DNA of 64,000 nt. Source: Acidobacteriota bacterium (GTDB lineage: Bacteria > Acidobacteriota > UBA890 > WLXD01). The translations under genes were made by a program, and so were the position numbers. The notes beneath the pieces are model-generated. The model saw only the letters and a list, made by a program, of their open reading frames with translations, ran no database searches and was not told the origin of the DNA. Position 1 is the first letter of the stretch, and the number at the start of each line of letters is the position of its first letter. Of this stretch, positions 7,157-29,473 are shown one piece after another. The DNA is taken from positions 64,001 through 128,000 of the forward strand of contig CAXWPH010000015.1 in the NCBI GenBank assembly GCA_963666055.2. The letters run 5' to 3'.

Positions 7157-8962
7157 ATGACGGAAACCAGGCCCGGGCTGTGGATCGCTTTGCTGGCGAG
7201 CTTGAGCATAACGGCTTGTCAGCCGTCAACGGAGGACGCGTCGCCAGGCGATGCTGGCGGTCCTGCCGATTTGGTCCTGCAGGGCGGTAAGTTCTTTACC
7301 GTCGACGAAGCCCAGGTCTGGGCTGAAGCCGTCGCGATCAAGCACGGTAGGTTCGTCTACGTCGGCGACAACACTGGCGTACAGGACTTCGTTGGCCCCG
7401 ATACCGATCGCTATGACCTCGGCGGCAAGCTGGCAATTCCCGGTCTAGTGGATTCCCATACACACCCAGGTCTGATGGGGCGGGAGACGGCCGGGTATAC
7501 CGCGGTCCCCGTGGGTGGTGGTCCCAGAGGGACGCTGCCCAGGGGCGGGAGCAAGGAGGAGATCCTCGCTGCGGTGGAGGCGTATGCCCAAGCCAACCCG
7601 GACCTTGCCTGGATCGAGATGGGTAGTTGGTCCGGGGATCTGTACGGCGTCGCGGGCCCACATAGGAGAGATTTGGATCGCGTGGTACCGGATCGACCGG
7701 TGCAGTTAGGAAGCATCCATAGCGTTTGGGTCAATTCCGTGGCGCTCGAGATGATGGGGGTCGACAGCAATACACCCGATCCGGTACCCGGTCTTTCATA
7801 CTTCGTACGGGATGCCGATGGGGAGCCTACCGGCTGGATCAAGGAACTTGCCGCCTGGCCCTATTCGCAGCACCTTGCTGACGTTGACCGGGAGTCCAAC
7901 AAGGAGGGTATCGTCACCTTCTTGGAGTACCTGGCACGCCACGGCGTTACTTCACTCTGGGACGCTGGCAACTTCAACTACCACGATCTCACGTACTCGC
8001 TGTTGGCTGAGCTAGAGGCGGCCGGTCGTCTGCCAGTTCGCTACGAGGGCAGCTATCACATCTACTTGCCCGATCAGGTGCCCGATGCGATCGATGAGCT
8101 ACGGCGGCTGCGCCGCACCTACGGCGGCGAGCGTCTACGGTTCAACACCATCAAGATTCACTTCGATGGCACGAATGAGATTCGTACCGGCGCGCTGCTC
8201 GAGCCATTCAGCGATGACCCGGGCAACCGGGGCGCTACCCTGCTCGACACCGAGCAACTGCGTGACTTCATCGTGCAGCTTCACGAAGCCAGGATCGATC
8301 TGCACTTGCACATCCGGGGCGACCGGGGCATTCGCATCGCACTGGATGCCGTGGAAGCAGCGCGCAGGTCGGTCGACGGCGAGCTCTATCCACGCGTCAC
8401 CATCTGCCACCTCGACCTCATCGATACGGCTGACTATCCCCGTTTCAAACAGCTGGGTGTCATTGCCAACTACACGCCCCAATGGCTCGGCCTGGGAGAC
8501 CGACCGCCGCTGACCGCCGGTACCCTTGGCCCTCGCTACGCAAGGATGTTTCTGGTCCAGCCGTTACTGGACGACGGCGCGGTCGTGACCTTCTCCAGCG
8601 ACGTGGTATCGCTCAGGGGCATGGAGCGGGCCAACCCTTATCTGGGGATGCAGATCGGCCACAACCGCCAATACCATCAGCAAGGTGAGGCTGCGCCGAT
8701 CAGGCTGCCGATGAGCGAACGCCTGGACCTGGAGGATCTAATCAAGGGATATACCTTGAGCGGCGCCTATCAGCTCCGCATGGAGGACCAGCTCGGCTCG
8801 ATCGAGGTGGGCAAACTCGCCGACCTGGTCGTGTTGGATCGCAACCTGTTCGAAATCGATCGCTACGAGATCCACGAGGTTCGACCCGAAGCGGTCATCA
8901 TGGAAGGCGAGATCATCAGGGGAAGCCTGGCAGGCCGTGGTGAAAGTGTGGCGGGGAGATGA
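7157..8962 (+). CDS. Lipoprotein amidohydrolase (YtcJ / Amidohydro_3 family)
   Basis: Lipobox SITAC; PGLVDSHTHP; HIRGDRG; FSSD; [18 protein letters not shown]. Confidence 0.9.
   Translation: MTETRPGLWIALLASLSITACQPSTEDASPGDAGGPADLVLQGGKFFTVDEAQVWAEAVAIKHGRFVYVGDNTGVQDFVGPDTDRYDLGGKLAIPGLVDSHTHPGLMGRETAGYTAVPVGGGPRGTLPRGGSKEEILAAVEAYAQANPDLAWIEMGSWSGDLYGVAGPHRRDLDRVVPDRPVQLGSIHSVWVNSVALEMMGVDSNTPDPVPGLSYFVRDADGEPTGWIKELAAWPYSQHLADVDRESNKEGIVTFLEYLARHGVTSLWDAGNFNYHDLTYSLLAELEAAGRLPVRYEGSYHIYLPDQVPDAIDELRRLRRTYGGERLRFNTIKIHFDGTNEIRTGALLEPFSDDPGNRGATLLDTEQLRDFIVQLHEARIDLHLHIRGDRGIRIALDAVEAARRSVDGELYPRVTICHLDLIDTADYPRFKQLGVIANYTPQWLGLGDRPPLTAGTLGPRYARMFLVQPLLDDGAVVTFSSDVVSLRGMERANPYLGMQIGHNRQYHQQGEAAPIRLPMSERLDLEDLIKGYTLSGAYQLRMEDQLGSIEVGKLADLVVLDRNLFEIDRYEIHEVRPEAVIMEGEIIRGSLAGRGESVAGR
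8931..8956. repeat. Partial (left-end) copy of the MITE terminal repeat, inside the amidohydrolase 3' end
   Basis: caggccgtggtgaaagtgtgg matches 29223-29243; preceded by CTGG instead of CTAG. Confidence 0.75.
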
Positions 8963-9481: not shown

Positions 9482-10153
9482 CTAGAGAAGCCCGCGCTCT
9501 TTGAAGCTCACGAACCCCTCGGCGCCGACCACCAGGTGATCGAGCACGCGAATGCCCAGCAACTCGCCGGCCTGCAGAATCTGCCGGGTGATTCCGACGT
9601 CTTCTCGACTCGGCGTCGGATCACCTGAGGGGTGATTGTGGAACAAGACGAGCGCCGGTGCAGCCGCCAGCAGGCTCTGCCGGAATACCTCACGGGGTCG
9701 AACGACGCTGGCGCTCCATCCGCCGCGTGAAAGCACTCGCTCGCTCAGGAAGCGGTTGCGGCCATCCAGTAGCACCACTCCGAAGCATTCGGCGCGCTCG
9801 CCGCCGTAGCGCGACATCAGATGTCGTCCCAAGTCGCGCGGGCGACGTATGACCAGGCCACGCGAGGGCGCTGGAGCGGCGAGCCGACGCGCCACCTCGA
9901 AGAGGGCGGCCAGGCGCGCCGCCGACGCCACCCCCACTCCGGGCTCCGAGCGCCATTCTTGCGGCTCGCCGCGGGCGAGCTCCCGTAGTCCGCCATGACG
10001 GAGCAGCGATCGCGCCATTGCCGCCGCCGAGCGGTTGCGCTGACCGTGGCCGATCACCAGCGCCAGCAGCTCGACGTCGCTTAGCGCCCCCGCACCGAGC
10101 TGTTCGAGCCGCTCCCGTGGACGGTCTCCGGGGTCGGCGGACGCCGATGGCAC
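9482..10153 (-). CDS. radC: RadC (JAB/MPN domain) protein, full length
   Basis: RPRERL..GAGALSDVELLAL, HhH region, HNHPSGDPTPSREDV, LDHLVVG. Confidence 0.95.
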   Translation of the reverse strand: MPSASADPGDRPRERLEQLGAGALSDVELLALVIGHGQRNRSAAAMARSLLRHGGLRELARGEPQEWRSEPGVGVASAARLAALFEVARRLAAPAPSRGLVIRRPRDLGRHLMSRYGGERAECFGVVLLDGRNRFLSERVLSRGGWSASVVRPREVFRQSLLAAAPALVLFHNHPSGDPTPSREDVGITRQILQAGELLGIRVLDHLVVGAEGFVSFKERGLL

Positions 10154-13032: not shown

Positions 13033-13386
13033 GGGGGCGTCAGGGTTCGACGGGAGCACTGAAGCCGAGGCTGCATGTCGAGCGTTCCACGTATGCTCGT
13101 TAATCCCACGTGGAAACCAACACAACTGCCAACACACCGGTAGCTCTAGCGGCTTAAACACCCGCTAGCGTTCCCCGACCCGGGCCTGCAAGGGTCGGAG
13201 CGAACGCCGTTCAGCAGGCTGGCCGCCCAGTTCCGTTCGGGGGCGAGGCGGCGAGACACTACCCGGACTAGCGTCGTATCAGCTGGCCCGCCGGGTCGAT
13301 ACAGCGTGAAACCTATCGGCGGGATAAGCATGTAGACGCTTCGTGTGGACGGTTTTCGGACGCGGGTTCAATTCCCGCCGCCTCCA
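13033..13386 (+). ncRNA. ssrA: tmRNA (transfer-messenger RNA)
   Basis: 5' GGGGGCG..GGTTCGAC; 3' T-arm GCGGGTTCAATTCCCGC then CGCCTCCA with G3-U70 and A73; tag ORF ANTPVALAA* at 13128-13157; CCA not encoded. Confidence 0.95.
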
Positions 13387-13426
13387 CTTCTATGTTATTG
13401 TGTCTATTGGAGTTACTGGTTACATC

Positions 13427-14524
13427 CTAGCCCGTCTCCACAATGTCTCCAAAACGAGGGCCACTTTTGGGCCCTTCGAGCAGCCTGATTGTCGCGTCTA
13501 TGGCTGCTGGGGACAGGTGCATATAACGCTGCGTCGTGGCCAGGTTGGCGTGCCCAGCGAGCACCTGGATGGCGCGCACCGGCCCACCCTGCATCGACAG
13601 ATGCGAGCAGAATGTGTGTCTGAGGATGTGCACCCCCTCATGCTGCAGGTTGGCGCGACGCGCCGCCCTGCGAACGAGGTTCTGCACCACCTTCTGGGTC
13701 AGCGGGCTTCCGCCGGTCTCGCACAGCACCCGTGCCCCACGCAGGTGACGCAGCGTCCGTAGCGCCTCCTGCAACCTGGTGGTCATCGGGACACGCCGGG
13801 GTCGACCGCTCTTGGGTGCGGTGACCTGGCCCTTCCACTCGGATCGGGCCACACGGAGCTGGCGCTTGCTGAAGTCGACATCCGTCCACTCCAGCGCCAT
13901 CATCTCCCCGCACCGCAGGCCGGCCTCTCCCCCGAGCAACACGATGGCGTGGGCACGCCGGTCAGTTGCCCGAGCCGCCTCGACAAGACGTTCGTACTCG
14001 TCGAAGTCGTGGAACGCCGCTTCCGTCGGTGTCACCGGAAGCAGCCGTACCGTGCACGGCATCGTGTCGATCACGTCCCATTCCACAGCGCATTTCAGCA
14101 GCCGGCTCAGGACCGACAGCACGTTGTTGACCGTCTTGACGGCCCTGGTGCTGAGGCGTTGCTTGAGCCGCTGCACATCTTCGTTGCCGATGGCGTCGAG
14201 CCTGCGCTGCCCAAGCGTCGGAATCAGGTGGATTCGCAGGATCGAATCCTGCGCCGCCTGAGTACTCGGCTTGAGCCGGTTGGCTCGAACGTGGCCATCC
14301 ATGTACCTGGGAGCGAAATGCACCAGTGTCGGCACCTCCTTTGATGGTCTCGGTGGTCCATTGGCCAATAGCTGCCGCTCACGCGCCTGCCCCCAGCGCC
14401 GGGCACCGGATTTCGCGGCGACGGGAGACTTCCTTCGCTCCCGTATTTCCCGGCCATCGTCCATCCGAATGCGGATGTCCACCTCCCAGCCGCCACGTCG
14501 ATAGGGTCGAATCGTTACACTCAT
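13427..14524 (-). CDS. Tyrosine recombinase / integrase
   Basis: Catalytic residues GLRCGE, APK, HILRH, LAGH, TQRY; N-terminal arm-binding-like and SAM-like regions; start overlaps the xis stop. Confidence 0.95.
   Translation of the reverse strand: MSVTIRPYRRGGWEVDIRIRMDDGREIRERRKSPVAAKSGARRWGQARERQLLANGPPRPSKEVPTLVHFAPRYMDGHVRANRLKPSTQAAQDSILRIHLIPTLGQRRLDAIGNEDVQRLKQRLSTRAVKTVNNVLSVLSRLLKCAVEWDVIDTMPCTVRLLPVTPTEAAFHDFDEYERLVEAARATDRRAHAIVLLGGEAGLRCGEMMALEWTDVDFSKRQLRVARSEWKGQVTAPKSGRPRRVPMTTRLQEALRTLRHLRGARVLCETGGSPLTQKVVQNLVRRAARRANLQHEGVHILRHTFCSHLSMQGGPVRAIQVLAGHANLATTQRYMHLSPAAIDATIRLLEGPKSGPRFGDIVETG
13433..13454. repeat. Tandem 11-bp repeats, putative integrase arm-type sites (left)
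   Basis: cgtctccacaa tgtctccaaaa; same motif as 21161-21182. Confidence 0.7.
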
Positions 14525-14805
14525 CAACGCTCCTTTCGCGCTGATGGCGCACGGCTTTCATCGAGCGAGCGTAGCAGGTCTTCGGACCGGACAAGTAAGC
14601 GGCGGCCGATCCGGGTTACGCCGACGAGTTGGCCTCTGCTGGCCATTGCGTAGATCGCCCCTCGGGTGGTGCGGAGAATCTCGGCTACCTCATCGGCGGT
14701 CAGGAGGATCGGGAGTCTGTCACCTGTCGGACCGATCGGTGATCCTTGTTTGGGTTTGACCGAACGGCGGCGGTCGCGAAGTCCTTGAAGTACGCGGTCT
14801 GCCAT
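14524..14805 (-). CDS. Excisionase-like helix-turn-helix (HTH_17) protein; start uncertain
   Basis: LLTADEVAEILRTTRGAIYAMASRGQL..RIGRRLLVRSEDL; translationally coupled to the integrase. Confidence 0.85.
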   Translation of the reverse strand: MADRVLQGLRDRRRSVKPKQGSPIGPTGDRLPILLTADEVAEILRTTRGAIYAMASRGQLVGVTRIGRRLLVRSEDLLRSLDESRAPSARKER

Positions 14806-15110
14806 TTCTCTCACGCGCGCTTTGTCTTCTGGACTGCGGTCGAGCCAAGTGACTTCCGAGCGGCTTGAGCGACCGCCGCCGAAGACACACCCCACCGATT
14901 GCGAACCGCTCGGACTTGTTCGAATTGCATGTCACCTCGCGCGAGTAATCGCTACCGCTGATGCCACTGACGGCTACTACACACCATCGAGGCACACGCC
15001 TGCTGAAGTTATTCATGCCAAGAAAAGCCCACAAATCCTTGTTATTCAATTACTTGAGCCATTCGGAGGGTTCACAACAAGGACAGAATGGACTGCGGAA
15101 ACCCGCTGTC

Positions 15111-15977
15111 TTAGGCGCGAGTCCGCTTGTTTGACCTTCGGAACGCCTTTGCGCACGCTTCGTCGCAGAACCGTCGCCTCGCACGCACGAGCCCGCTCGT
15201 CTCCAGTCGCTCGCCAACGAGAATCGGCGTCCCACACCAAGGGCAGAACCGCCTGTCTCTGCTGATTGTCTTCAAGGCGTTCGAGAAAGGAATTCCACGG
15301 AGCTCTGACTGGATCTGGGCCCGGTCGTTCCACCTGATTCGCATCTCGGACACGCGGTAGAGCTTTAACCGTCGATACTCAGGCAGTGGTTCGGCTGAGC
15401 CGTCCTCCGGGGTGATGTCGGTGTCCGGGGTTACATAGACAGGAATCGATTCGCCGATAATCGGATCGTAAGAATCGAAACGTCGCCACACGCGCCCCTT
15501 GTGCCTCTTGCCGGTCTCGGGGCTTGTCGTTCGTTTGCGATGCATCACACGGAGCGGTGACTCTGTGCGTCGCCTGGCAGCGGCAGCTCGCCGAGCGCGA
15601 ACCTGCCGACCAATCTGATTGATTCGCGCAAGCTCCCGGGATACTGATGGTTGAGACAGGACAAGTTCACTTGCAAGGGACTGTTGCGAAGGTGTCTTCG
15701 ATGGCGGCCGACATTCCACAACGAGCTGGGCCACTCTCCGCTGTCGCTCTGTGAGGCGATACTCCCCATAGAGTCGCAGCCGTTCCGATGCCGCTCGGCG
15801 CTCGCTACCCACTTCTGGATAGCTCCAATCGCGAAGACGCTCATCAGCCTCGAGTGCCGCACGAGCCTCACGCCAGGCGGCTCTCTCAGCCGCGTGTTCG
15901 CGCTGGAAGTGGCCGTCCAAGCTGTGGAAGTCCGCGAACACTTGGCCACAGTCGTGACACACATGCTGTGGTTCCAC
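15111..15977 (-). CDS. Hypothetical nucleic-acid-binding protein: C2H2 zinc finger + HTH + C-terminal C4 zinc finger
   Basis: CHDCGQVFADFHSLDGHFQREH; SQQSLASELVLSQPSVSREL; CPWC...RRRFCDEAC. Confidence 0.7.
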   Translation of the reverse strand: MEPQHVCHDCGQVFADFHSLDGHFQREHAAERAAWREARAALEADERLRDWSYPEVGSERRAASERLRLYGEYRLTERQRRVAQLVVECRPPSKTPSQQSLASELVLSQPSVSRELARINQIGRQVRARRAAAARRRTESPLRVMHRKRTTSPETGKRHKGRVWRRFDSYDPIIGESIPVYVTPDTDITPEDGSAEPLPEYRRLKLYRVSEMRIRWNDRAQIQSELRGIPFSNALKTISRDRRFCPWCGTPILVGERLETSGLVRARRRFCDEACAKAFRRSNKRTRA

Positions 15978-16042
15978 TTAGAGTCACTCCACGAAGGTGC
16001 CTACTATCCGAACAAACGCACTGTACGCCAGCAGGGTGGGCG

Positions 16043-16066
16043 TGACCTGCCCCCCTTTTCTGGTCC
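16043..16066. repeat. Orphan IS3-family terminal inverted repeat
   Basis: tgacctgccccccttttctggtcc resembles the adjacent IS end tgacctgaccccccaaaacggatcc. Confidence 0.55.
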
Positions 16067-17326
16067 TGACCTGACCCCCCAAAACGGATCCAGAGGTAAT
16101 CTCACGATCTGGGTCGAAAAGGGGAGGTCAGAATGCCGACGAAGAGGCACAGCGCCGAGCAGATCGTACGCAAGCTCCGGGAGGCTGAAGTGGAGCTGGC
16201 GCAAGGCGGGACGGTCAAGGATGCCTGCCGCAAGCTAGCGATCACCGAGCACACCTACTATCGGTGGCGGCGGGAGTAGGGGGGGCTGAAGGTCAACCAG
16301 GCCAGAAGGCTCAAGCAGCTGGAGAAAGAAAACGCCCGGCTCAAGAAACTGGTGGCGGAGAAAGAGCTCGACCTGTCGATCCTGAAGGAAGTCGCGGAGG
16401 GAAACTTCTGAGCCCAGCTCGACGGCGCGAGGCGGTGGCGCATGTACGGGGGCGGCTGGGCGTCTCCGAGAGGCGGGCGTGCCGGGTACTGAAACAACCA
16501 CGCACGACACACAGGTACATGCCAACAGAACCGGGCGATGAGCAGATGTTGACGGAGCGGATCGTGGATCTAGCCCGACAATACGGGCGCTACGGGTATC
16601 GGCGAGTGACGGCGTTGTTGCGTATGGAGGGCTGGTGGGTGAACCACAAACGAGTGCAGCGTATCTGGAGGCGTGAGGGGCTGAAAGTACCGACAAAGCA
16701 GCCCAAACGAGCCCGGCTGTGGCTCAGCGATGGCTCGTGCATCCGGCTGCGACCACAGCGCAAAGATCACGTCTGGGCGTATGACTTCGTCCATCACCGG
16801 ACGCACGAGGGTCGGGCTATGAGGCTGCTGACGATCGTCGATGAGTACACACGAGAAAGCCTGGCGATCGACGTGGCACGGAAGCTCAACTGTGAGGACG
16901 TGCTCGAGCGGCTCGGGTGGTTGTTCGTGCACCGGGGCATACCTGAGCACATCCGGTCCGATAACGGACCGGAGTTCACCGCCGAGGCGGTTCGCGACTG
17001 GCTCGGTAGGCTCGGTGTGGGCACGCTGTTCATCGAGCCGGGCTCGCCGTGGGAGAACGGCTACGTGGAGAGCTTCAACGGCAAGCTCCGAGACGAGCTG
17101 CTCAACGGCGAGATCTTCTACACGCTCAAGGAGGCAAAGGTTCTGATCGAGAGATGGAGGCAGCAGTACAACCGCATGCGACCGCACAGCTCGTTGGGCT
17201 ACCGACCACCGGCCCCGGAGGCGCTGTTGTTGAAGCCGGCTACGCTCCGCTTCGCCGGCCTCAACAACCCCTTGTCAGCACCGAGTTACTGAGATAAGAC
17301 GTGGTACTAACCGTGGGGTCAGGTCA
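16067..17326 (+). mobile_element. IS3-family (IS407-group-like) insertion sequence
   Basis: Ends TGACCTGACCCC (16067) and GGGGTCAGGTCA (17326); orfA/orfB with G GGA AAC -1 slip site near 16399; no clear target duplication. Confidence 0.9.
16133..17292 (+). pseudogene. IS3-family transposase orfAB with nonsense mutation in orfA
   Basis: orfA 16133-16411 has an in-frame TAG at 16277 where EYGGLK is expected; orfB is intact with DDE motifs (WAYDF, RSDNG, VESFNG). Confidence 0.85.
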
Positions 17327-17479
17327 CCCTCGAGCAATCCCGAACAGCGTCCACGCCAAGATCTGATTGTCATCGATGTCACCCGTGTGGTCGTCGAAGT
17401 GACACCTGTGGCTAAGTTTCCACGGGGCGCGAGCTCGACTGGCGATGTCGATGTGACCTTGCCCCGCTTTCCCGGACAC

Positions 17480-18764
17480 TTAGTTAAGATCCATTGTCGT
17501 AGTCGTATTAGCGGCTGTGGGAGCTGTTGGCAACGCGGAGCGTTGTCCAAGCGACGGTGGAAATCGGGAGTCGATTTCCACGGGCGCGTCAGCTTCCACA
17601 GCTGATTGGCCGCTCTGGCCTGGCCGCCGCATTGCCGCCTCCAACTGAGCCGGACTCTGGTCTCCGATCGAGGTGTGCATGCGAGCCCGGTTGTAGAACA
17701 CTTCGATGTAGTGGAACAACTCGGCTCGGGCCGCCGCCCGGGAACTGAAGCAGCCACCGAGTTCGAACTTCAGGGTAGAGAAGAAACTCTCCATCGGCGC
17801 GTTATCCCAGCAGTCTCCTTTCCTGCTCATGCTGATGGTGAAGCCACGGTCACGCAGCTTGTCTAGGTAATCGTCGCTGCTGTACTGGCTGCCGCGGTCG
17901 CTGTGATGGAGCACTCCGGAACCGGGACGGCGTTGCTCCAAGGACTGATCCAGGACCGCCAGCGTCAAATCGTCCGTCATCGTCTCGCTCACCGCCCAGC
18001 CGATGATCCGTCGCGAGCACAGATCCATCAGCACGGCCAGGTATAGCCATCCTTCCTGCGTCCACAGGTATGTCAGGTCGCCCACCCAGACGCTGTCCAC
18101 GGCATCCACCGTGAAGCGCCGTGCCAGCACGTTGGGCGCCGCTGACCGCCCAGGTGTGGGCCGTGTTGTCACCCGGAACCGACGGGGTTGGCGAGCTCGA
18201 AGTCCTTCCTGGCGCATCAGCCGAGCTACCCGCTTGCGAGAGCAGCGGATCCCTCGTTGCCGAAGTTGCTTGTGGATGCGCGGACTTCCGTAACGGTCGC
18301 GGCTCTCTCGGAATGCAGCTCTGATCTGCACACGTAGACGGCGATCTTCTCGCGCTCTCGGGCTCGGCCCCCTTCCTCGCCACTCGTAGTAACCGCCGTG
18401 AGACACCTCGAGCATCTTGCACAACCGCCGCACCGGGAACTTGCCGGACAGTTGCTTGATGATCGGGTACTTCATCGCGGGCGTTCCGAGAAGATCGCCA
18501 ACGCTTTTTTAGAATGTCGCGCTCCTGCCGTACTCGCCGCAGGTCCCGCCGTAGCTGTTGCCCGTCCAGGTCCTGGTCGGGCATCTTCCCCGCGCCCGGA
18601 AACGCCGTGACCCCCTGCTCCTGGAGCTGTTTGCGCCACTTGGTCAACATGCCGCGGCCAACACCCAGATCCCGGGCCACCTCAGACACCGGATGGCCCA
18701 GCTGCGTCACCATCCTCACTGCCTCAATCTTGAACTCGCGACTGTACCGCCGTCGTGACCCCAT
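17480..18764 (-). pseudogene. IS3-family transposase orfAB, orfA apparently frameshifted at the A-run
   Basis: orfA RRYSREFKIEAV..ERDILKK; the A6G at 18504-18510 needs one more A to read KKALAIFSERPR* and couple to orfB (WVGDLTY, HHSDRGSQY, MESFF). Confidence 0.75.
17514..17602. repeat. Structured palindromic element inside the IS 3' end
   Basis: Outer IR gctgtgggagctg/cagcttccacagc enclosing two hairpins (ttggcaacgc..gcgttgtccaa; gtggaaatcg..cgatttccac). Confidence 0.7.
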
Positions 18765-18913
18765 GCTTCACCTCCGAGCCCATTATCGGGCTTCCAAAGG
18801 TGTCCGGGAAATCGGGGAGGCCCACCTTAGGGGCCGGTGGGCTTGAGCTCGGGGGTTATGATGGATGGCTCTTTCGCGACGACGACGCAGGTCCGTGAAC
18901 TTCAGGAGAGCCC

Positions 18914-20167
18914 ATGCTTGAAGAGAGTCACCACTACTTCAACAAGGCGGCCGATTTGCTCGGCCTCTCCGAAAGGGTCCGCAAGATCCTGATTACTCCA
19001 CGCCGGGTGGTCAAGGTAGAGATCGTAATCGAAAGTGACGGCGGCCAACTACTCCACTTCCTCGGGTTTCGGGTGCAACACAGCAACACTCGCGGGCCCT
19101 ATAAGGGGGGCTTGCGGTACCACCCCGCGCTGGACGAGAACCATGCGGCGGCTCTGGCCAATCTGATGACCTGGAAGACCGCCATCGCCAATGTGCCATT
19201 CGGGGGTGCTAAGGGGGGTATCGACTGCGACCCGGCGCAGCTTTCGAAGTCCGAACTTGATCGCGTCACTCGTGCCTTCGTGGGTCAGATCAAGGAGGTA
19301 ATTGGCCCGAACTTGGATGTCCCCGCGCCTGACGTCAACACAAATGCTGAAGTGATGGCGTGGATCATGGACGAGTATTCGAAATACGAGGGTTTCTCAC
19401 CTGGGGTGGTCACGGGGAAGCCGGTTCATCTGTTCGGATCGGCAGGCCGGGAGGAAGCTACCGGACGTGGCTTGTTGTACGTCCTGGAGGAGGCACTCGG
19501 CGATCACGACCTGCCACTAGCAGGTCGAACCATCGCGCTACAGGGATTTGGAAACGTGGGCAGTAACGCAGCCCGGCTCATTGCCGAAAAAGGGGGGAGG
19601 ATCGTGGCAGTAGCCGACCATGCCGGAGCCGTCCACAATCTCGATGGGCTCGACGTGTCGGCTCTGGCGGATTGGGTCAAGGAGCATGGGACCGTTCACG
19701 GCTTTCCGCGTGGCGATGCCTTCGACGGCACCGAGATCATCACCTGGCCGGCGGAGATCCTGATCCCTGCGGCTCTCGAGAACATGATCACAGCGGACAA
19801 CGCCAAGGACGTTCAGGCCAGGATCGTGATCGAAGGAGCCAATGGCCCCACTACTCCCCAGGCCCACGAGATTCTTTTGGAACGTGGCGTCACGGTAGTG
19901 CCGGACATCCTCGCCAACTGCGGTGGCGTTACCGTCAGTTACTTCGAATGGGCTCAGAACGTCCAGCGATTCAGCTGGGAATACGACCGAGTGGTTAAGG
20001 AACTTGAGAAGGTCATGCGGCGAGCCTACCGGGCGGTCAGGAGTCTTGCACAGAAAAAGAATGTCGACCTGCGAACGGCTGCTTTTGCATTGGCGATTCA
20101 ACGAGTGGGCAGGGCGGCTGCCTCTCGCACGACAATGCGAGAAGAGATCGGCTTCCAAGATTCTTGA
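18914..20167 (+). CDS. gdhA: Glu/Leu/Phe/Val dehydrogenase, most likely glutamate dehydrogenase
   Basis: GPYKGGLRY, MTWK, GGAKGG, PAPDVNT, VVTGKP, EATGRG, QGFGNVG, EGANGP, GGVTVSYFEW; AGGAG RBS. Confidence 0.9.
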   Translation: MLEESHHYFNKAADLLGLSERVRKILITPRRVVKVEIVIESDGGQLLHFLGFRVQHSNTRGPYKGGLRYHPALDENHAAALANLMTWKTAIANVPFGGAKGGIDCDPAQLSKSELDRVTRAFVGQIKEVIGPNLDVPAPDVNTNAEVMAWIMDEYSKYEGFSPGVVTGKPVHLFGSAGREEATGRGLLYVLEEALGDHDLPLAGRTIALQGFGNVGSNAARLIAEKGGRIVAVADHAGAVHNLDGLDVSALADWVKEHGTVHGFPRGDAFDGTEIITWPAEILIPAALENMITADNAKDVQARIVIEGANGPTTPQAHEILLERGVTVVPDILANCGGVTVSYFEWAQNVQRFSWEYDRVVKELEKVMRRAYRAVRSLAQKKNVDLRTAAFALAIQRVGRAAASRTTMREEIGFQDS

Positions 20168-20237
20168 CGCCATGACGGGCGACGACCGCGACCTGCGTGC
20201 ACGAGGACCCGGCCACGGAGGACGAGAGGGTGGAGCG

Positions 20238-20849
20238 GTGAGTGGTTGGATTATCTGGTTCGAACGAGTTGTGATTTTCGCCGTCTCCGCATCTGTGATC
20301 GAGTTCACGGTGAGCACGATGCCAGTCGGAGAATCGGCACCGCTATTACGCATGACGGCTGCTGTGTTGCGGGTTTGGTTCGTGATCGAGTACGCGCTGC
20401 GCATCGTGATGAGCAGTAGGAAGTGGCGCTACGTAGTGAGCGTAGCTGGCGTGGCAGATCTTCTTGCCGTGGTGCTCGACGCAGGGGTGCTGAAGCTGCT
20501 GCGCCTGCTGAAGCTCACGTCGAGGGCAACAGCGCTCAACCGATTGAAACGAGGTGTCTTCGCAGTGCGCCACGAACTCGCTGCCGCCGCGGGGGGTACT
20601 GGCATGCTGCTCTACGTCTCAGCTGTCGCTCTGTACTACGCCGAACGCGACGTGCAACCAGACACCTTCGGCTCCATTCCGGCCGCGCTGTGGTGGTCCG
20701 TTATCACTTTGACGACGGTCGGATACGGAGACGTGACCCCAGTAACACCGGCAGGACGGGTGCTCACGGGAATCGTCGTCCTGCTCGGGATTGGCGTTGT
20801 CGCCGTTCCTACCGGTCTGATCGCGTCGGGACTGTCGAGAGACGCGTAG
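20238..20849 (+). CDS. Voltage-gated-type potassium channel (start 20172 or 20238)
   Basis: Selectivity filter TTVGYGD, WWSVIT pore helix, S4-like LKLLRLLKL. Confidence 0.88.
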   Translation: MSGWIIWFERVVIFAVSASVIEFTVSTMPVGESAPLLRMTAAVLRVWFVIEYALRIVMSSRKWRYVVSVAGVADLLAVVLDAGVLKLLRLLKLTSRATALNRLKRGVFAVRHELAAAAGGTGMLLYVSAVALYYAERDVQPDTFGSIPAALWWSVITLTTVGYGDVTPVTPAGRVLTGIVVLLGIGVVAVPTGLIASGLSRDA

Positions 20850-21160
20850 CCGGCTAGTGGAGGGCGGGGAGGTGCAGTGATGCTGGGCCAACGCCGCTTA
20901 GTCGCCAGTCTCACTAACTGTAGTAGATTGAGTCGCCTTCCTCAGTGTGCGCGACTGGCGGCACGGTTCCCCGCGTCGTGTTTGCGCCGGTTTGAATCCC
21001 ATTTCCCCGTTCAACACCCGGCGCGGAACCCCGAGCGCACCGTCGCTCCTAGGCACAGTACGCTCAGCATTATCTGCAATGATGGATGGTCGCCCACGAT
21101 AAGCACCTCCACCGATCTCAATATCCCGGTGGCTCTACGCTGCCGCGAGTTCAACATGGT

Positions 21161-21230
21161 CGTCTCCAAAACGTCTCCAAAACCCGGGTGCACTCCAGTA
21201 GATTCCAGTCGACTGGAGTCGACTCCCTGA
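21161..21230. repeat. Putative att arm: two 11-bp arm-type repeats followed by four 10-bp-period repeats
   Basis: cgtctccaaaa x2 (21161-21182); cactccagta gattccagtc gactggagtc gactccctga (21191-21230). Confidence 0.65.
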
Positions 21231-21337
21231 GTCGCCGTAAACGGATACCTGTCAACGAGAAACGGCGAAAGCCGCGCGCCATCAACCACTTAGAGGAATC
21301 CGTTACAGCGGGTTCAATTCCCGCCGCCTCTTTCGGG

Positions 21338-21820
21338 TCATTCCATGCGTAGCGAGAGCGCCAGCAGGACGGCCGCGACGAACGGAGCGATCGTGCGTAC
21401 GTGGTTCATCCTCACCCACTCCTGCAGATATGTCGCCCAGTAGGCGACTCCCTCCGCAGAGTTCGGATCCATAGCCTCCAGGATGTCGTTACGGGGAACG
21501 TGGTAGCCGACCGTGACCAACAGCACGCCGACGATGTACAGGGCGCCGGCGATCAACTGGTATCTGGACCCAGGGTGCTGAAGGTGCATCGCCGCGTAGA
21601 TCATGAGAACGAGACAGGCGGTGCCCGTGCCGAACAGCAGCAGCATGAAGGGCAGCGTCGGCGCTTCCTTGTTGATCGCCTGCATGGCAGCAGCCCCTTG
21701 CTCCGGGGCGAGGCGCTTGAGCCCCGCCATGGTGAACGTCGAGAAGGTAAAGAACGCCCCGGCCGCGGTGGCCGCGCCAACGGCGCAGATGATCGTCATG
21801 GTTTGAGCGAAGGAGCTCAT
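21338..21820 (-). CDS. DUF1772 / anthrone oxygenase family membrane protein
   Basis: GAFFTFSTFTMAGL, AMQAIN, VPRN, YWATYLQEWVRMNHVRT. Confidence 0.85.
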   Translation of the reverse strand: MSSFAQTMTIICAVGAATAAGAFFTFSTFTMAGLKRLAPEQGAAAMQAINKEAPTLPFMLLLFGTGTACLVLMIYAAMHLQHPGSRYQLIAGALYIVGVLLVTVGYHVPRNDILEAMDPNSAEGVAYWATYLQEWVRMNHVRTIAPFVAAVLLALSLRME

Positions 21821-22122
21821 GATGCCTCCCCCTGCAGATTCCAGACGCCGGGTGCAGCCGTGGCGCGGGCATAGTCGGCGAAGCTGCCCACCCTGTCGGC
21901 GGCGCCGGGGAAGGCGAGGTCGGGGTAGTAGGTGATGTATACGGCGTCCACGCCATCCAGGGCGGGAGCCCAGGTGTGGTCGTCGTTCCAGTCGAAGCGC
22001 GTCTCACCGGAGCGAGATGCGGCCCGCACCGGACATCCGCCCGCAGTCAGCAGGTCGGTCACCCGCCGCCCGGTCTTACCGCTGGCGCCAAGAACGAGGG
22101 TCGTTCGTGTGGTCTCGAGCAT
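21817..22122 (-). pseudogene. NmrA-family NAD(P)-binding protein with large in-frame internal deletion
   Basis: Rossmann start LVLGASGKTGRRV joined directly to the family C-terminus FADYARATAAPGVW; only 101 aa. Confidence 0.75.
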
Positions 22123-22241
22123 CTGTGCACTCCGTTTGGTTTGAGTGATACCGGCCATAGGAGCAGTGTGTGTGTGCGGCCAACCAGACGGTCCATGGCT
22201 CAGATGCTCAACTTCATGTGTGGTCGTCTATGCTGATGGGA

Positions 22242-23180
22242 ATGGATCCTTTCGTCGGCTTGCTCGATGGTCCGCGTGCCCGCGGCGCCTTCGCGCTGCG
22301 CACCGTGATGACCCCACCGTGGTCGCTGCGGATCCTCGCCGAATCACCGCTCACGGTGCTCGCCATGGTGCAGGGCGAGGCGTGGGTGGTGCCCGACGAC
22401 GGCGAAGCGGTGCGCCTCGCTGTGGGCGACGTGGCGGTCACCCGCGGTCCCGACCATTACAACGTCGCCGACCGCCCGGACCGATCGCCCGACATCGTGA
22501 TCCACCCCGGCCAGCAGTGCCGGTCGCTGGACGGCGAGTCCATGCAAGAGGAGATGTCGCTCGGCGTGCGCACCTGGGGCAACGACCCTGCCGGCTCCAC
22601 CGTGATGCTCGTCGGTGCCTACGAGGCTATCGGCGACATCAGCGATCGCCTGCTCCGTGCGCTGCCACCGGTCTTGTCAGTGCTACACGATCAGTGGGAC
22701 TCGCCACTGGTGTCGTTGCTCTGCGAGGAAGTCGTGAAGGACGAACCCGGCCAGGCGGCAGTTCTCGACCGACTGATCGATCTGTTGCTCATCCAGGTTC
22801 TGCGCACTTGGTTCGCCCGACCCGAGGCCGACGCCCCGGAGTGGTACCGGTCGCAGGGTGATCCGGTTGTCGGGCGGGCGCTGCGCGTCATGCACATCGA
22901 TCCCGCCCGTCAATGGACGGTGGCCGGCCTCGCTGCCGAAACCGGGGTTTCGCGCGCCGCGCTGGCTCGACGATTTCACCAAGTGGTGGGCGAGCCGCCG
23001 ATGACGTTCCTTACCGGATGGCGCCTGGCCCTGGCCGCCGATCTGCTGTGCGAACCGGATGCAACGGTCGGCTCCGTGGCTGAGCAGGTGGGCTACAGCA
23101 GTCCGTTCGCCCTCAGCACGGCCTTCAAACGAGTGCGCGGCCTCAGTCCGCAAGAGCATCGCGTCCGCGCCATGTCCTGA
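22242..23180 (+). CDS. AraC-family regulator with cupin_6 domain
   Basis: LLDGPRARGAF; DPVVGRAL..WTVAGLA..SRAALARRF; VGYSSPFALSTAFKR. Confidence 0.92.
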   Translation: MDPFVGLLDGPRARGAFALRTVMTPPWSLRILAESPLTVLAMVQGEAWVVPDDGEAVRLAVGDVAVTRGPDHYNVADRPDRSPDIVIHPGQQCRSLDGESMQEEMSLGVRTWGNDPAGSTVMLVGAYEAIGDISDRLLRALPPVLSVLHDQWDSPLVSLLCEEVVKDEPGQAAVLDRLIDLLLIQVLRTWFARPEADAPEWYRSQGDPVVGRALRVMHIDPARQWTVAGLAAETGVSRAALARRFHQVVGEPPMTFLTGWRLALAADLLCEPDATVGSVAEQVGYSSPFALSTAFKRVRGLSPQEHRVRAMS

Positions 23181-29090: not shown

Positions 29091-29222
29091 CAGATGGCCT
29101 CCGTTCCGTTTCGGGTCCGCTCCCCAGGGGGGGCAATCCGTCGATTCGCCCCGACGTCGGGCCGCGTCTACCCGGCTGCGCTCCGCTTCGAACGCACAGG
29201 GAACCAACGGCCGCGATTCTAG

Positions 29223-29393
29223 CAGGCCGTGGTGAAAGTGTGGTGGGTCTGGCGACAGGGTCTTGCGAAGTGCAGGCAAGGAGAGAGGAGGAGGCGATGG
29301 TTACCCCATCGTTGACGAGGAACGACGCAGCATACGCGCGCAACCCCCTGTCGCCCGAAGGGTTACGGCCCACCACACTTTCACCACGGCCTG
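29223..29393. mobile_element. MITE, 171 bp, perfect 25-bp TIRs, flanked by CTAG
   Basis: caggccgtggtgaaagtgtggtggg (29223-29247) and its exact reverse complement (29369-29393); CTAG at 29219-29222 and 29394-29397. Confidence 0.9.
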
Positions 29394-29473
29394 CTAGGAA
29401 CCGGCAAGGGATTCCACAAGGGAGCTTCTATCTCATTGCCATTACCGAGGAGCACGGGTAGCGGCGCGGCGCT

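Follow-up and report, generated by a model that had tools for sequence, protein, structure and literature searches.

The window is the whole stretch of DNA that was analysed, 64,000 nucleotides in length, and it carries an 8-kb island within a tmRNA gene. The gene (tag ANTPVALAA; positions 13033–13387, plus strand) is the target of integration and is intact after the insertion. The sequence-only reading had proposed att repeats bounding about 8 kb, and this is borne out by an identical 23-bp direct repeat at 13362–13384 and 21308–21330, 7946 bp apart, with 6e-9 such repeats expected by chance per window. The first copy (attL core, plus strand) comprises the T-arm and the acceptor 3′ strand of the tmRNA, and the second (attR core, plus strand) is a displaced tmRNA 3′ fragment. 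The features used by Islander are all found here, namely an intact tDNA with a displaced 3′ fragment in the same orientation, a PF00589 integrase, and a length (7946 bp) in the range of 2–200 kb. In the available part of the Islander report (PMC4383910), the tDNA islands share with this one the restored tmRNA target, the displaced fragment, the integrase family, the size range, the cargo and the switching of tDNA targets, and mobility genes are not required. The island is real and its class is ordinary: it is a member of the tDNA-targeted tyrosine-integrase genomic islands, with no difference from them at this level.

The integrase gene (int; 13427–14524, minus strand) reads towards attL and therefore faces outward. 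It encodes 365 residues from its ATG and scores over the PF00589 cut-off (E 2.7e-30), with all the catalytic residues intact (R204, K238, H299, R302, H325 and Y334). The scores against the XerC, XerD and integron models are far under their cut-offs, and no Pfam match to an arm-binding N-terminal domain was found. No integrase of more than 60% identity was found in cultured phages or plasmids, where the best matches are 24–30% identical, and the viral contigs gave one partial integrase match, with 63% identity. The excisionase gene (xis; 14524–14895, minus strand) encodes an HTH_17 protein (PF12728, E 2.3e-10; excisionase in PHROGs), and its stop overlaps the int start. The xis open frame has 123 aa, with the true start uncertain, and is 70 aa in the closest relatives. 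By sequence, this is a lambda-type tyrosine-integrase module.

The attL core has 5-bp inverted arms that flank the 7-nt T-loop, which is likely to be the overlap region. The junction of one relative (G002, locus L105) is a tRNA-Leu/tmRNA chimera with the crossover at the T-arm. The outer edge of the attR core is 4 nt shorter than at the same junction in G003 and G004. Tandem GTCTCCA pairs, predicted to be arm-type sites, are located on both sides of the core and are conserved. The pair within the last int codons (13434–13451, plus strand) probably forms the Int arm-type sites of the P′ arm, and a tandem at the end of int is found at 45 of 81 loci with up to two mismatches. The other pair (21162–21179, plus strand), where the similarity between attR copies starts, probably forms those of the P arm. 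Four imperfect 10-bp direct repeats (21191–21230, plus strand), with the same spacing by eye in related arms, are likely Xis sites on the basis of their periodicity. Positions 21281–21293 (plus strand) contain a putative IHF-like site, and a similar site is in the same place in related arms. Tandem junctions resembling attP are present in two relatives (L117 and L228). No attP or empty-site joint was among the joints listed for the contigs of seven runs, and contigs drop rare variants.

Two IS elements and two cargo genes had been read in the island, and all four are confirmed. Element A (16067–17326, plus strand) and element B (17454–18824, minus strand) belong to the IS3 family and have several near-identical copies elsewhere in the genome; the first ORF of element A has an in-frame stop that is shared by two other copies. 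Element A truncates a 24-bp orphan end of a third IS (16043–16066, plus strand), and the same end is found at four other genome sites. Neither element has a target duplication, which points to deletions. The cargo consists of a Glu/Leu/Phe/Val (glutamate) dehydrogenase (18914–20167, plus strand) and a potassium channel (20172–20849, plus strand; start uncertain). No replication, conjugation or capsid family was found in the element, in agreement with the earlier claim, by Pfam for all seven proteins and by PHROGs for Int, Xis and the third gene product (ORF3). This covers a primase or replication initiator (a PICI/P4-like trait), a relaxase or coupling protein, and capsid, terminase and packaging-interference families; ORF3 has no family assignment and might conceivably act in interference. 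An eroded larger element, the second of two options offered before, fits best. The island appears to have been eroded by IS-linked deletions, and its transfer is likely to depend on outside help.

The module has many relatives. Among 74 loci with enough DNA, xis is found upstream of int in full at 51 and in part at 2. The int-xis module is at the head of islands of several kinds, 3.6–90 kb in length, and a primase or replication initiator is present in 5 of 51 relatives and, by Pfam, a relaxase or coupling protein in 5. The compact-element option of the sequence-only reading would have been refuted in part had the relatives been only full prophages or ICEs. This is not the case: some are islands with a primase, some have a relaxase, and others carry cargo only. 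The closest relatives, G003 and G002, have integrases 84–85% identical to Int. The three integrases group together (SH-aLRT 100) and targets switch in a quick integrase tree of 62 rows with partial integrases omitted, which is used here only for these two points.

Inside xis there is an extended −10 motif, TGnTAnnnT (14568–14576, minus strand), which is predicted to be an int-only promoter with its +1 at 14561. The motif is found in 45 of 46 distinct junctions, and none of 1239 windows taken from int coding DNA has it. Its presence requires a CTA, GTA or TTA codon, and CTA and TTA together make up 4.9% of the Leu codons in these int genes. A purine is located 6 nt after the motif in 43 of 45 cases, and the motif is retained at two loci without detectable xis (L018 and L080). 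No −35 motif is evident. A consensus promoter scan, which demands a −35 and is blind to extended −10 sites, gave nothing above shuffles. We infer that this internal promoter yields an int-only mRNA.

The int AUG is positioned in the 3′ strand of a predicted RNA hairpin (14513–14553, minus strand), with the 3′ end of xis as the 5′ strand and an SD-like AAAGGAG in the loop. Across 45 junctions, pairing is kept in 97.2% of 494 cells (13 cells are unpaired). The start pattern used to choose the junctions, present at 48 of 80 loci, fixes part of the 3′ strand. Changes that keep the pairs are two-sided in 21 cases and one-sided in 34. None of 500 shuffles is as high, the slid controls reach 13–49%, and RNAalifold recovers the same 11 pairs. 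The leader has no match in Rfam.

A second copy of the int leader is located in attR. The leader motif, 18 nt covering a toehold and the 5′ strand of the hairpin (14542–14559, minus strand), is identical at 17 of 18 positions to a segment at 21267–21284 (plus strand), whose minus-strand reading gives the antisense of the leader. In the 24 junction/attR pairs examined, 7 of them with the attR partner on another contig, the attR copy corresponds to the first ~19 nt of the predicted int mRNA and co-varies with it. The match begins at or beside the predicted +1, and the attR copy sits 25–28 nt inside the core in 22 of the 24 pairs. All 23 scored pairs (scores 21–33) beat all of 200 shuffles, and six tmRNA fragments without this arm have scores of 10–18. 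None of 10000 permutations of the partners matches as well as the cognate pairing, with kin among the pairs not independent. In about half of the pairs a 1-nt gap interrupts the middle of the match. The predicted promoter, hairpin and attR copy together are a conserved feature, common to relatives across Acidobacteriota.

The direction of wobble changes was considered as an independent proof of RNA pairing and was rejected, since the G·U counts between the copies are equivocal (27:13, p 0.04; 18:14 in a fixed 19-nt window, p 0.6). A ratio of 17:4 is reached only on post hoc removal of two edge columns and two misanchored rows. Part of any G·U bias follows from the hairpin alone. The feature formed by promoter, hairpin and attR copy had been overlooked in the sequence-only reading.

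Folding from +1 leaves the AUG unpaired at 0.03 for the leader alone, 0.52 with the attR antisense and 0.04 with shuffled antisense. The AUG is opened in 22 of 24 cases with the antisense, against 0 of 24 in the comparison, for fragments chosen after the result with longer ones, and the outcome depends on the choice of fragment. In the longer fragments (−70 to +40) the hairpin is below 0.5 in 17 of 24, and the mean accessibility of the initiation region goes from 0.45 to 0.46, which is no gain. For the full-length mRNA of the window, the hairpin is at 1.0 in the integrated state and 0.0 on the modelled circle, where the AUG is only 0.24 unpaired and SD accessibility falls from 0.88 to 0.39.

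On balance, we favour the reading that this is an eroded tmRNA island whose int-xis-att module senses its own excision through RNA pairing. In the integrated state, the int-only mRNA from the internal promoter would be locked by the hairpin, and ribosomes on xis, in transcripts from an upstream promoter, would melt it, so that Int would be made only together with Xis and excision would follow. Once the circle has formed, transcription of this mRNA, or of a short RNA begun near attP, would continue past the core and reach the P arm some 90 nt beyond the int stop. The antisense copy there could pair with the leader from +1. This pairing would open the hairpin and give Int without Xis on the circle only, and the circle would reintegrate. 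The wider proposal is nearly evenly poised and slightly to the doubtful side: a widespread clade of tRNA/tmRNA-targeting integrases may use positive retroregulation, with a leader-locked int mRNA unlocked only by transcription across attP. It counts against the switch that an untranslated 1.1-kb mRNA may be halted by Rho before attP.

The shared 19-mer might instead be bound as double-stranded DNA by Xis, Int or a host protein, which we regard as rather unlikely. It would then serve as an operator over positions +1 to +19 at the int promoter and as an accessory site at attR, as for TorI/IntS in KplE1, and the hairpin would be a separate device coupling int to xis translation. A layout just downstream of +1 is common for operators, co-variation is expected if the protein changes, and two IHF-like sites flank the attR copy, in a region of recombination-protein binding. 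The fixed-window test gives no significant wobble bias, and autoregulation by RDFs and integrases is documented in the accessible part of PMC2951348. However, the motif is unlike the arm sites, the core and the 10-bp repeats, and the central 1-nt gap by which the copies often differ is easier to reconcile with a bulge in RNA than with a single protein site. Moreover, both copies are kept in L011, where xis is partial, and in L018, where it was not found, and the orientation and both boundaries of the match suit strand displacement of the hairpin.

It is improbable that the duplex on the circle instead silences int, as an RNase III substrate, a leader block or a sib-like negative retroregulator, or trims the xis end off the xis-int mRNA. 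A duplex of ~19 bp is of a size that RNase III can cut, the SD is less accessible in the modelled circle of the window, and the long fragments show no average gain in accessibility. Lambda offers a precedent (PMC5300877, in the portion available). Against this, the AUG opens in nearly all of the +1 transcripts, and even with no trailer the hairpin keeps the leader locked (0.97), so extra silencing would add little. Finally, it is very unlikely that the attR copy has no function and is left over from an old duplication. The circle brings xis, int and attP next to one another and they are inherited together, so some similarity could be shared history, but the two copies change in step among integrases that are roughly 55–85% identical while their surroundings differ, and the position of the attR copy is fixed.

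The lambda promoter pI depends on CII, and expression of Int from the long lambda transcript is reduced by sib. The favoured reading of an excision-sensing module differs: what lies downstream is the int leader in antisense, its predicted effect is to increase Int by opening the hairpin, and the island has no phage genes. Shared with lambda, as far as covered by the accessible parts of PMC2951348 and PMC5300877, are xis-int reading towards att, an int-only promoter inside xis (predicted here), core plus arm, Xis and IHF sites (predicted here), and sequence after att that is transcribed only when unintegrated. ICEKp1, ICEclc (Pcirc) and KplE1 also tie Int output to the integrated or circular state and favour integration, in the available parts of PMC13023037, PMC5812530 and PMC2951348. 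There int faces inward and excision joins a new upstream promoter, whereas here int reads towards att, excision adds a downstream antisense trailer, and control would act on translation. The literature searched yielded no account of an antisense to an int leader encoded at attP; most subscription papers and older phage work are outside its coverage, and this negative is therefore no proof of novelty. An excision-unlocked int hairpin would likely be a new way of steering integration. The module matters because direction control by integrases other than that of lambda is poorly known, according to the part of PMC2951348 available. If the reading is correct, the recombination product itself sets the Int:Xis ratio without any regulator protein. 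Such an integrase switch, self-limiting and protein-free, would be useful in genome engineering. The feature reaches dozens of elements in little-studied phyla, and the prediction is precise and testable by a few compensatory mutations.

The third gene, ORF3 (15111–15977, minus strand), encodes a near-orphan of 288 aa: its N-terminus is C2H2-like, its centre has an HTH-like stretch, and its C-terminus carries a four-cysteine finger. It had been described as a zinc-finger/HTH gene in a co-oriented core of about 2.7 kb with int and xis. The three genes are indeed all on the minus strand, over 2551 bp (~2.6 kb). The label is weakly supported: the Pfam matches are below cut-off (E 0.013–0.036), but two remote homologues, obtained in a search without length limit (another search covered near lengths only), keep the C-terminal CxxC...CxxxC unchanged. 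These homologues, and a recognition of 2510, support a real protein. The single-sequence structure model has a pLDDT of 44, the Atlas matches are all ≤0.85 and are leads only, and PADLOC and NCBIfam gave no match.

It is highly doubtful that int, xis and the zinc-finger gene define a compact, satellite-like class, even with three co-oriented genes, complete att sites, a small size and a genuine-looking ORF3 protein. ORF3 is missing from all 80 related integrase loci, 60 other genomes and 400 genomes of the phylum, and was rejected as a core gene; as it is not conserved with the integrase, the proposed trio is not a unit. This lack of conservation is the more important half of the refutation that the sequence-only reading had specified for the trio. 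In the closest relatives its slot is filled by unrelated genes, a 264-aa orphan in G003 and a GIY-YIG-like gene with a DrmD-like helicase in G002. Its four weak metagenome/viral matches cover the finger alone, with neither int nor xis matched at those four loci, and the IS elements speak for deletions. ORF3 is probably a cargo regulator outside the module, and together with the dehydrogenase and the channel it would be exchangeable cargo.

Islands in tmRNA genes without transfer genes are already well described. The Pseudomonas islands I23, I44 and I55 and VPI-1 share the tmRNA site, direct repeats, a tyrosine integrase, variable cargo and the lack of autonomous transfer genes (PMC12595487, available part); they measure 23–55 kb and have a core of alpA, YqaJ and inovirus Gp2-like genes, none of which was found here. 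The tycheposons and 'cryptic' integrase-plus-excisionase elements of Prochlorococcus, in the accessible text of bioRxiv 2020.12.28.424599, are likewise small and tRNA-targeting with an integration module and cargo, and a primase module is likewise present in some of the relatives here and absent from others. In tycheposons the integrase is lineage-specific and points inward, and a replication module is usually present, whereas the integrase of this island faces outward and the island has no replication module. The iOriT islands (bioRxiv 2026.01.13.699239, in part) share the integrase, the att sites and the lack of relaxase and mating-pair genes, and are defined by an oriT. RadC, which belongs to the shared core of the I55/VPI-1-like islands, is also not among the element proteins; a radC gene is located at 9482–10153, outside the island and in host synteny.

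The island at the tmRNA gene (13033-13387) is bounded by the last part of that gene and an identical 23-mer at 21308-21330, 7946 bp distant (chance expectation 6e-9 per window), which confirms the ~8-kb element with 23-bp att repeats described in the sequence-only reading. The minus strand carries the genes for a tyrosine integrase (int), with all six catalytic residues present, an HTH_17 excisionase (xis), whose stop codon overlaps the int start, and, third, ORF3 (288 aa, 15111-15977). Two IS3-family elements are located beyond ORF3, with near-identical copies at other places in the genome, and beyond them are the cargo genes, for a glutamate dehydrogenase and a potassium channel. The GC content is 61%, compared to 63-64% in the flanks. 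At the closest integrase match, from Acidobacteriota, the neighbouring genes are conserved. Without the IS elements the island measures about 5.3 kb.

Both att sites are complete, with the T-stem present in the core as inverted arms that flank a 7-nt loop. A tandem pair of GTCTCCA is present in both arms, the left one within the final int codons (a pair at the int end is found in 45 of 81 loci), and the right arm has in addition four 10-bp repeats and a site that we take to be IHF-like. The layout appears to be lambda-like, with the repeats and sites in presumed roles. No excision junction was seen in the contigs of 7 runs. A further sequence, presumably IHF-like, is found at 15044-15056, between xis and ORF3; this gap is AT-richer and may contain the promoter of xis-int.

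Comparison with the best 80 of 149 integrase relatives found in GTDB genomes shows that int is adjoined by a tmRNA or tRNA in 68 of the 80 loci (43 tmRNA, 25 tRNA and 12 none), and that xis is upstream of int in 51 (full) plus 2 (partial) of the 74 loci with enough DNA. No match to ORF3 was found at ORF level in the 80 loci (the best other E value is 0.21), in 60 relatives or in 400 genomes of the phylum. Two remote homologs were found among 1.8 billion representatives (E values 2.5e-13 and 6.6e-4), as well as four weak matches to the finger part only, whose fetched loci contain neither int nor xis. The nearest integrases, from the same-genus genomes G003 (85%) and G002 (84%), group with that of the window at SH-aLRT 100 and have different genes in the ORF3 slot. 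The int-xis-zinc-finger trio is not a unit, and the satellite-like class that it had been proposed to define is not supported.

Island contents were surveyed by Pfam in the 51 loci where the inward DNA measures 5.5 kb or more, with a maximum of 4 genes per locus (170 proteins). Primase or helicase modules were found in 5 loci, relaxase or coupling genes in 5, and an unnamed conserved family in 7; the other 34 have genes for defence or metabolism, IS, host genes or unknown genes, and weaker signs of mobilisation are present in 3 of the 34. None of the 170 proteins matched a phage structural family, and with such mixed contents the integrase of the relatives is not restricted to prophages or ICEs, as had been considered earlier. 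The distance from target to displaced fragment in the relatives is 3.6 to 90 kb. A ~340-aa unnamed family, with no Pfam match and often as two tandem paralogs, comes next after xis in L010, L040, L043, L045, L046, L054 and L059 (also in L036 and L068). The tRNA-Ser island of L011 (7517-11125), which at 3.6 kb is smaller than that in the window, consists of int, part of xis and a single cargo gene, and retains the promoter motif, hairpin and attR copy discussed below. The integrase 84% identical to that of the window is located at a tRNA-Met fragment, and chimeric tRNA-Leu/tmRNA junctions have the crossover in the T-arm (L100:10054 on contig C7 of G002, L104:8080 and L105:8792); the clade therefore switches targets easily.

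Target duplications are absent at both IS elements of the window, and an orphan 24-bp IS end adjoins one of them (IS-A). IS-linked deletions are therefore indicated, and the suggestion of an eroded larger element fits; an eroded or cargo-only island is most likely. Islands of this kind are already described by Islander (PMC4383910), PMC12595487 and, as cryptic elements, the tycheposon preprint. By the membership tests for PICI, IME and tycheposon the element belongs to none of these, and the island itself is an ordinary member of the tDNA-island class. The first ORF of IS-A has TAG at 16277-16279, a stop that three IS-A copies in the genome share; the codon is TAC in two near-identical copies. 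ARAGORN predicts a tRNA-Pyl (CTA) in the same genome (C5:65608).

A repeat search of the window revealed an 18-bp inverted match between the 3' end of xis (14542-14559) and attR (21267-21284). The former is part of the leader, the predicted 5' end of an int-only mRNA (+1 at 14561). Junctions were taken from 48 of the 80 loci (start pattern present), G002 and the window. Of the 46 distinct junctions, 45 have an extended -10 motif within xis, compared to 0 of 1239 control windows. The motif imposes rare codons; its last T is constant while the codon varies among Trp, Ser and Phe, and a purine follows after 6 nt in 43 of 45. The motif is also kept in L018 and L080, two loci in which xis was not detected. 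L031, with an IS in place of xis, lacks both the motif and the hairpin and was not counted here. The predicted leader hairpin has the SD within its loop and the AUG within its 3' strand. In the junction alignment 97.2% of cells are paired (controls far lower), with two-sided changes at four pairs and 34 one-sided pair-keeping changes; the hairpin of the window has a z of -2.1.

For 24 junctions an attR partner was taken; 17 of the partners share the contig of their junction, and 7 are at other places in its genome. The attR copy spans roughly +1 to +19 of the leader, and in 22 of the 24 pairs its distance inward from the core is 25-28 nt. In every one of the 23 pairs scored the match exceeds all shuffles, and lineage-specific variants occur in leader and attR copy alike (for example L011, L022 and L048). 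A permutation test of cognate pairing gave 0/10000, with kin not independent. At the level of sequence, the conserved promoter-hairpin-attR arrangement is real.

Since int reads towards attL, its mRNA in the integrated island would enter the tmRNA gene antisense and never reach the attR copy. On the excised circle, the mRNA would cross the core and then reach the complement of its own 5' end, about 90 nt beyond the int stop in the model. This complement would pair first with a single-stranded toehold and then with the 5' strand of the hairpin. Co-folding from the predicted +1 opened the AUG in 22 of 24 modeled pairs, compared to 0 of 24 with shuffles, and in folds of the full-length window mRNA the predicted hairpin goes from 1.0 (integrated) to 0.0 (circle). 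In the integrated state, Int would be made only via coupling to xis translation, and excision would therefore be favored; on the circle, Int would be made without Xis, and integration would therefore be favored. The arrangement is best read as an excision-sensing RNA switch, including a variant with a short attP-born RNA, and we consider this reading modestly probable.

Several results stand against the switch. The G.U bias is 27:13 (p 0.04) with loose alignments and 18:14 (p 0.6) with a fixed window; a ratio of 17:4 was reached only by trimming afterwards. We consider a DNA operator at the two copies a less probable alternative. In longer fragments the mean folding accessibility is not raised, and in the circle model of the window the unpaired value of the AUG is no higher than 0.24 and the SD becomes closed. 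A silencing duplex between leader and attR copy would agree with this closure and not with the co-folding, and is improbable. Untranslated int mRNA could also be stopped by Rho.

In its geometry the module resembles lambda pI plus sib, and in its presumed purpose ICEKp1, ICEclc and KplE1. The known cases depend on an activator protein, on RNA decay or on a new promoter upstream (PMC2951348, PMC5300877, PMC5812530, PMC13023037). The literature, as far as its accessible text extends, gave no description of an antisense to an int leader that is encoded in attP, and Rfam has no match to the leader. The probably novel part is the conserved promoter-hairpin-attR arrangement.

The genome has no second copy of the integrase. 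The ~170-bp attR arm recurs, in whole or in part, at eight other places (C2:344309, C2:346675, C5:98846, C8:36498, C8:60001, C13:40753, C15:1362512 and C15:1360185), 80-93% identical, with tmRNA, tRNA-Leu or no cores; 6 of the 8 carry the leader copy. Several form same-orientation pairs, 1.5-2.4 kb apart, enclosing one or two genes, and such pairs are present in G002 and G003 as well. At L233:5171-11176 (G410:C12:22149-28154), five tmRNA-end cores, four with the P arm of the clade, are spaced at 1.3-1.6 kb, with three AAA_14/DUF4143 ATPase genes, each by itself between cores, and a fourth, partial, beyond; no integrase was found in the fetched DNA. The locus resembles an integron-like array, its cassettes bounded by att sites and holding one gene each, and our guess is that it arose by attR x attR shuffling.

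To the right of attR in the window (21338-23180) are genes for an anthrone-oxygenase, a truncated NmrA and an AraC, which an older island probably carried as cargo. They stand where G004 has a 7-kb block after the tmRNA; in G004 these genes are found behind a tmRNA-end core distant from the tmRNA, and in G003 behind such a core on a different contig. A ~180-bp MITE-like repeat with inverted ends, at 29219-29398 and 8925-8955, recurs with 91-97% identity at other places in the genome, in G002 and in G003.
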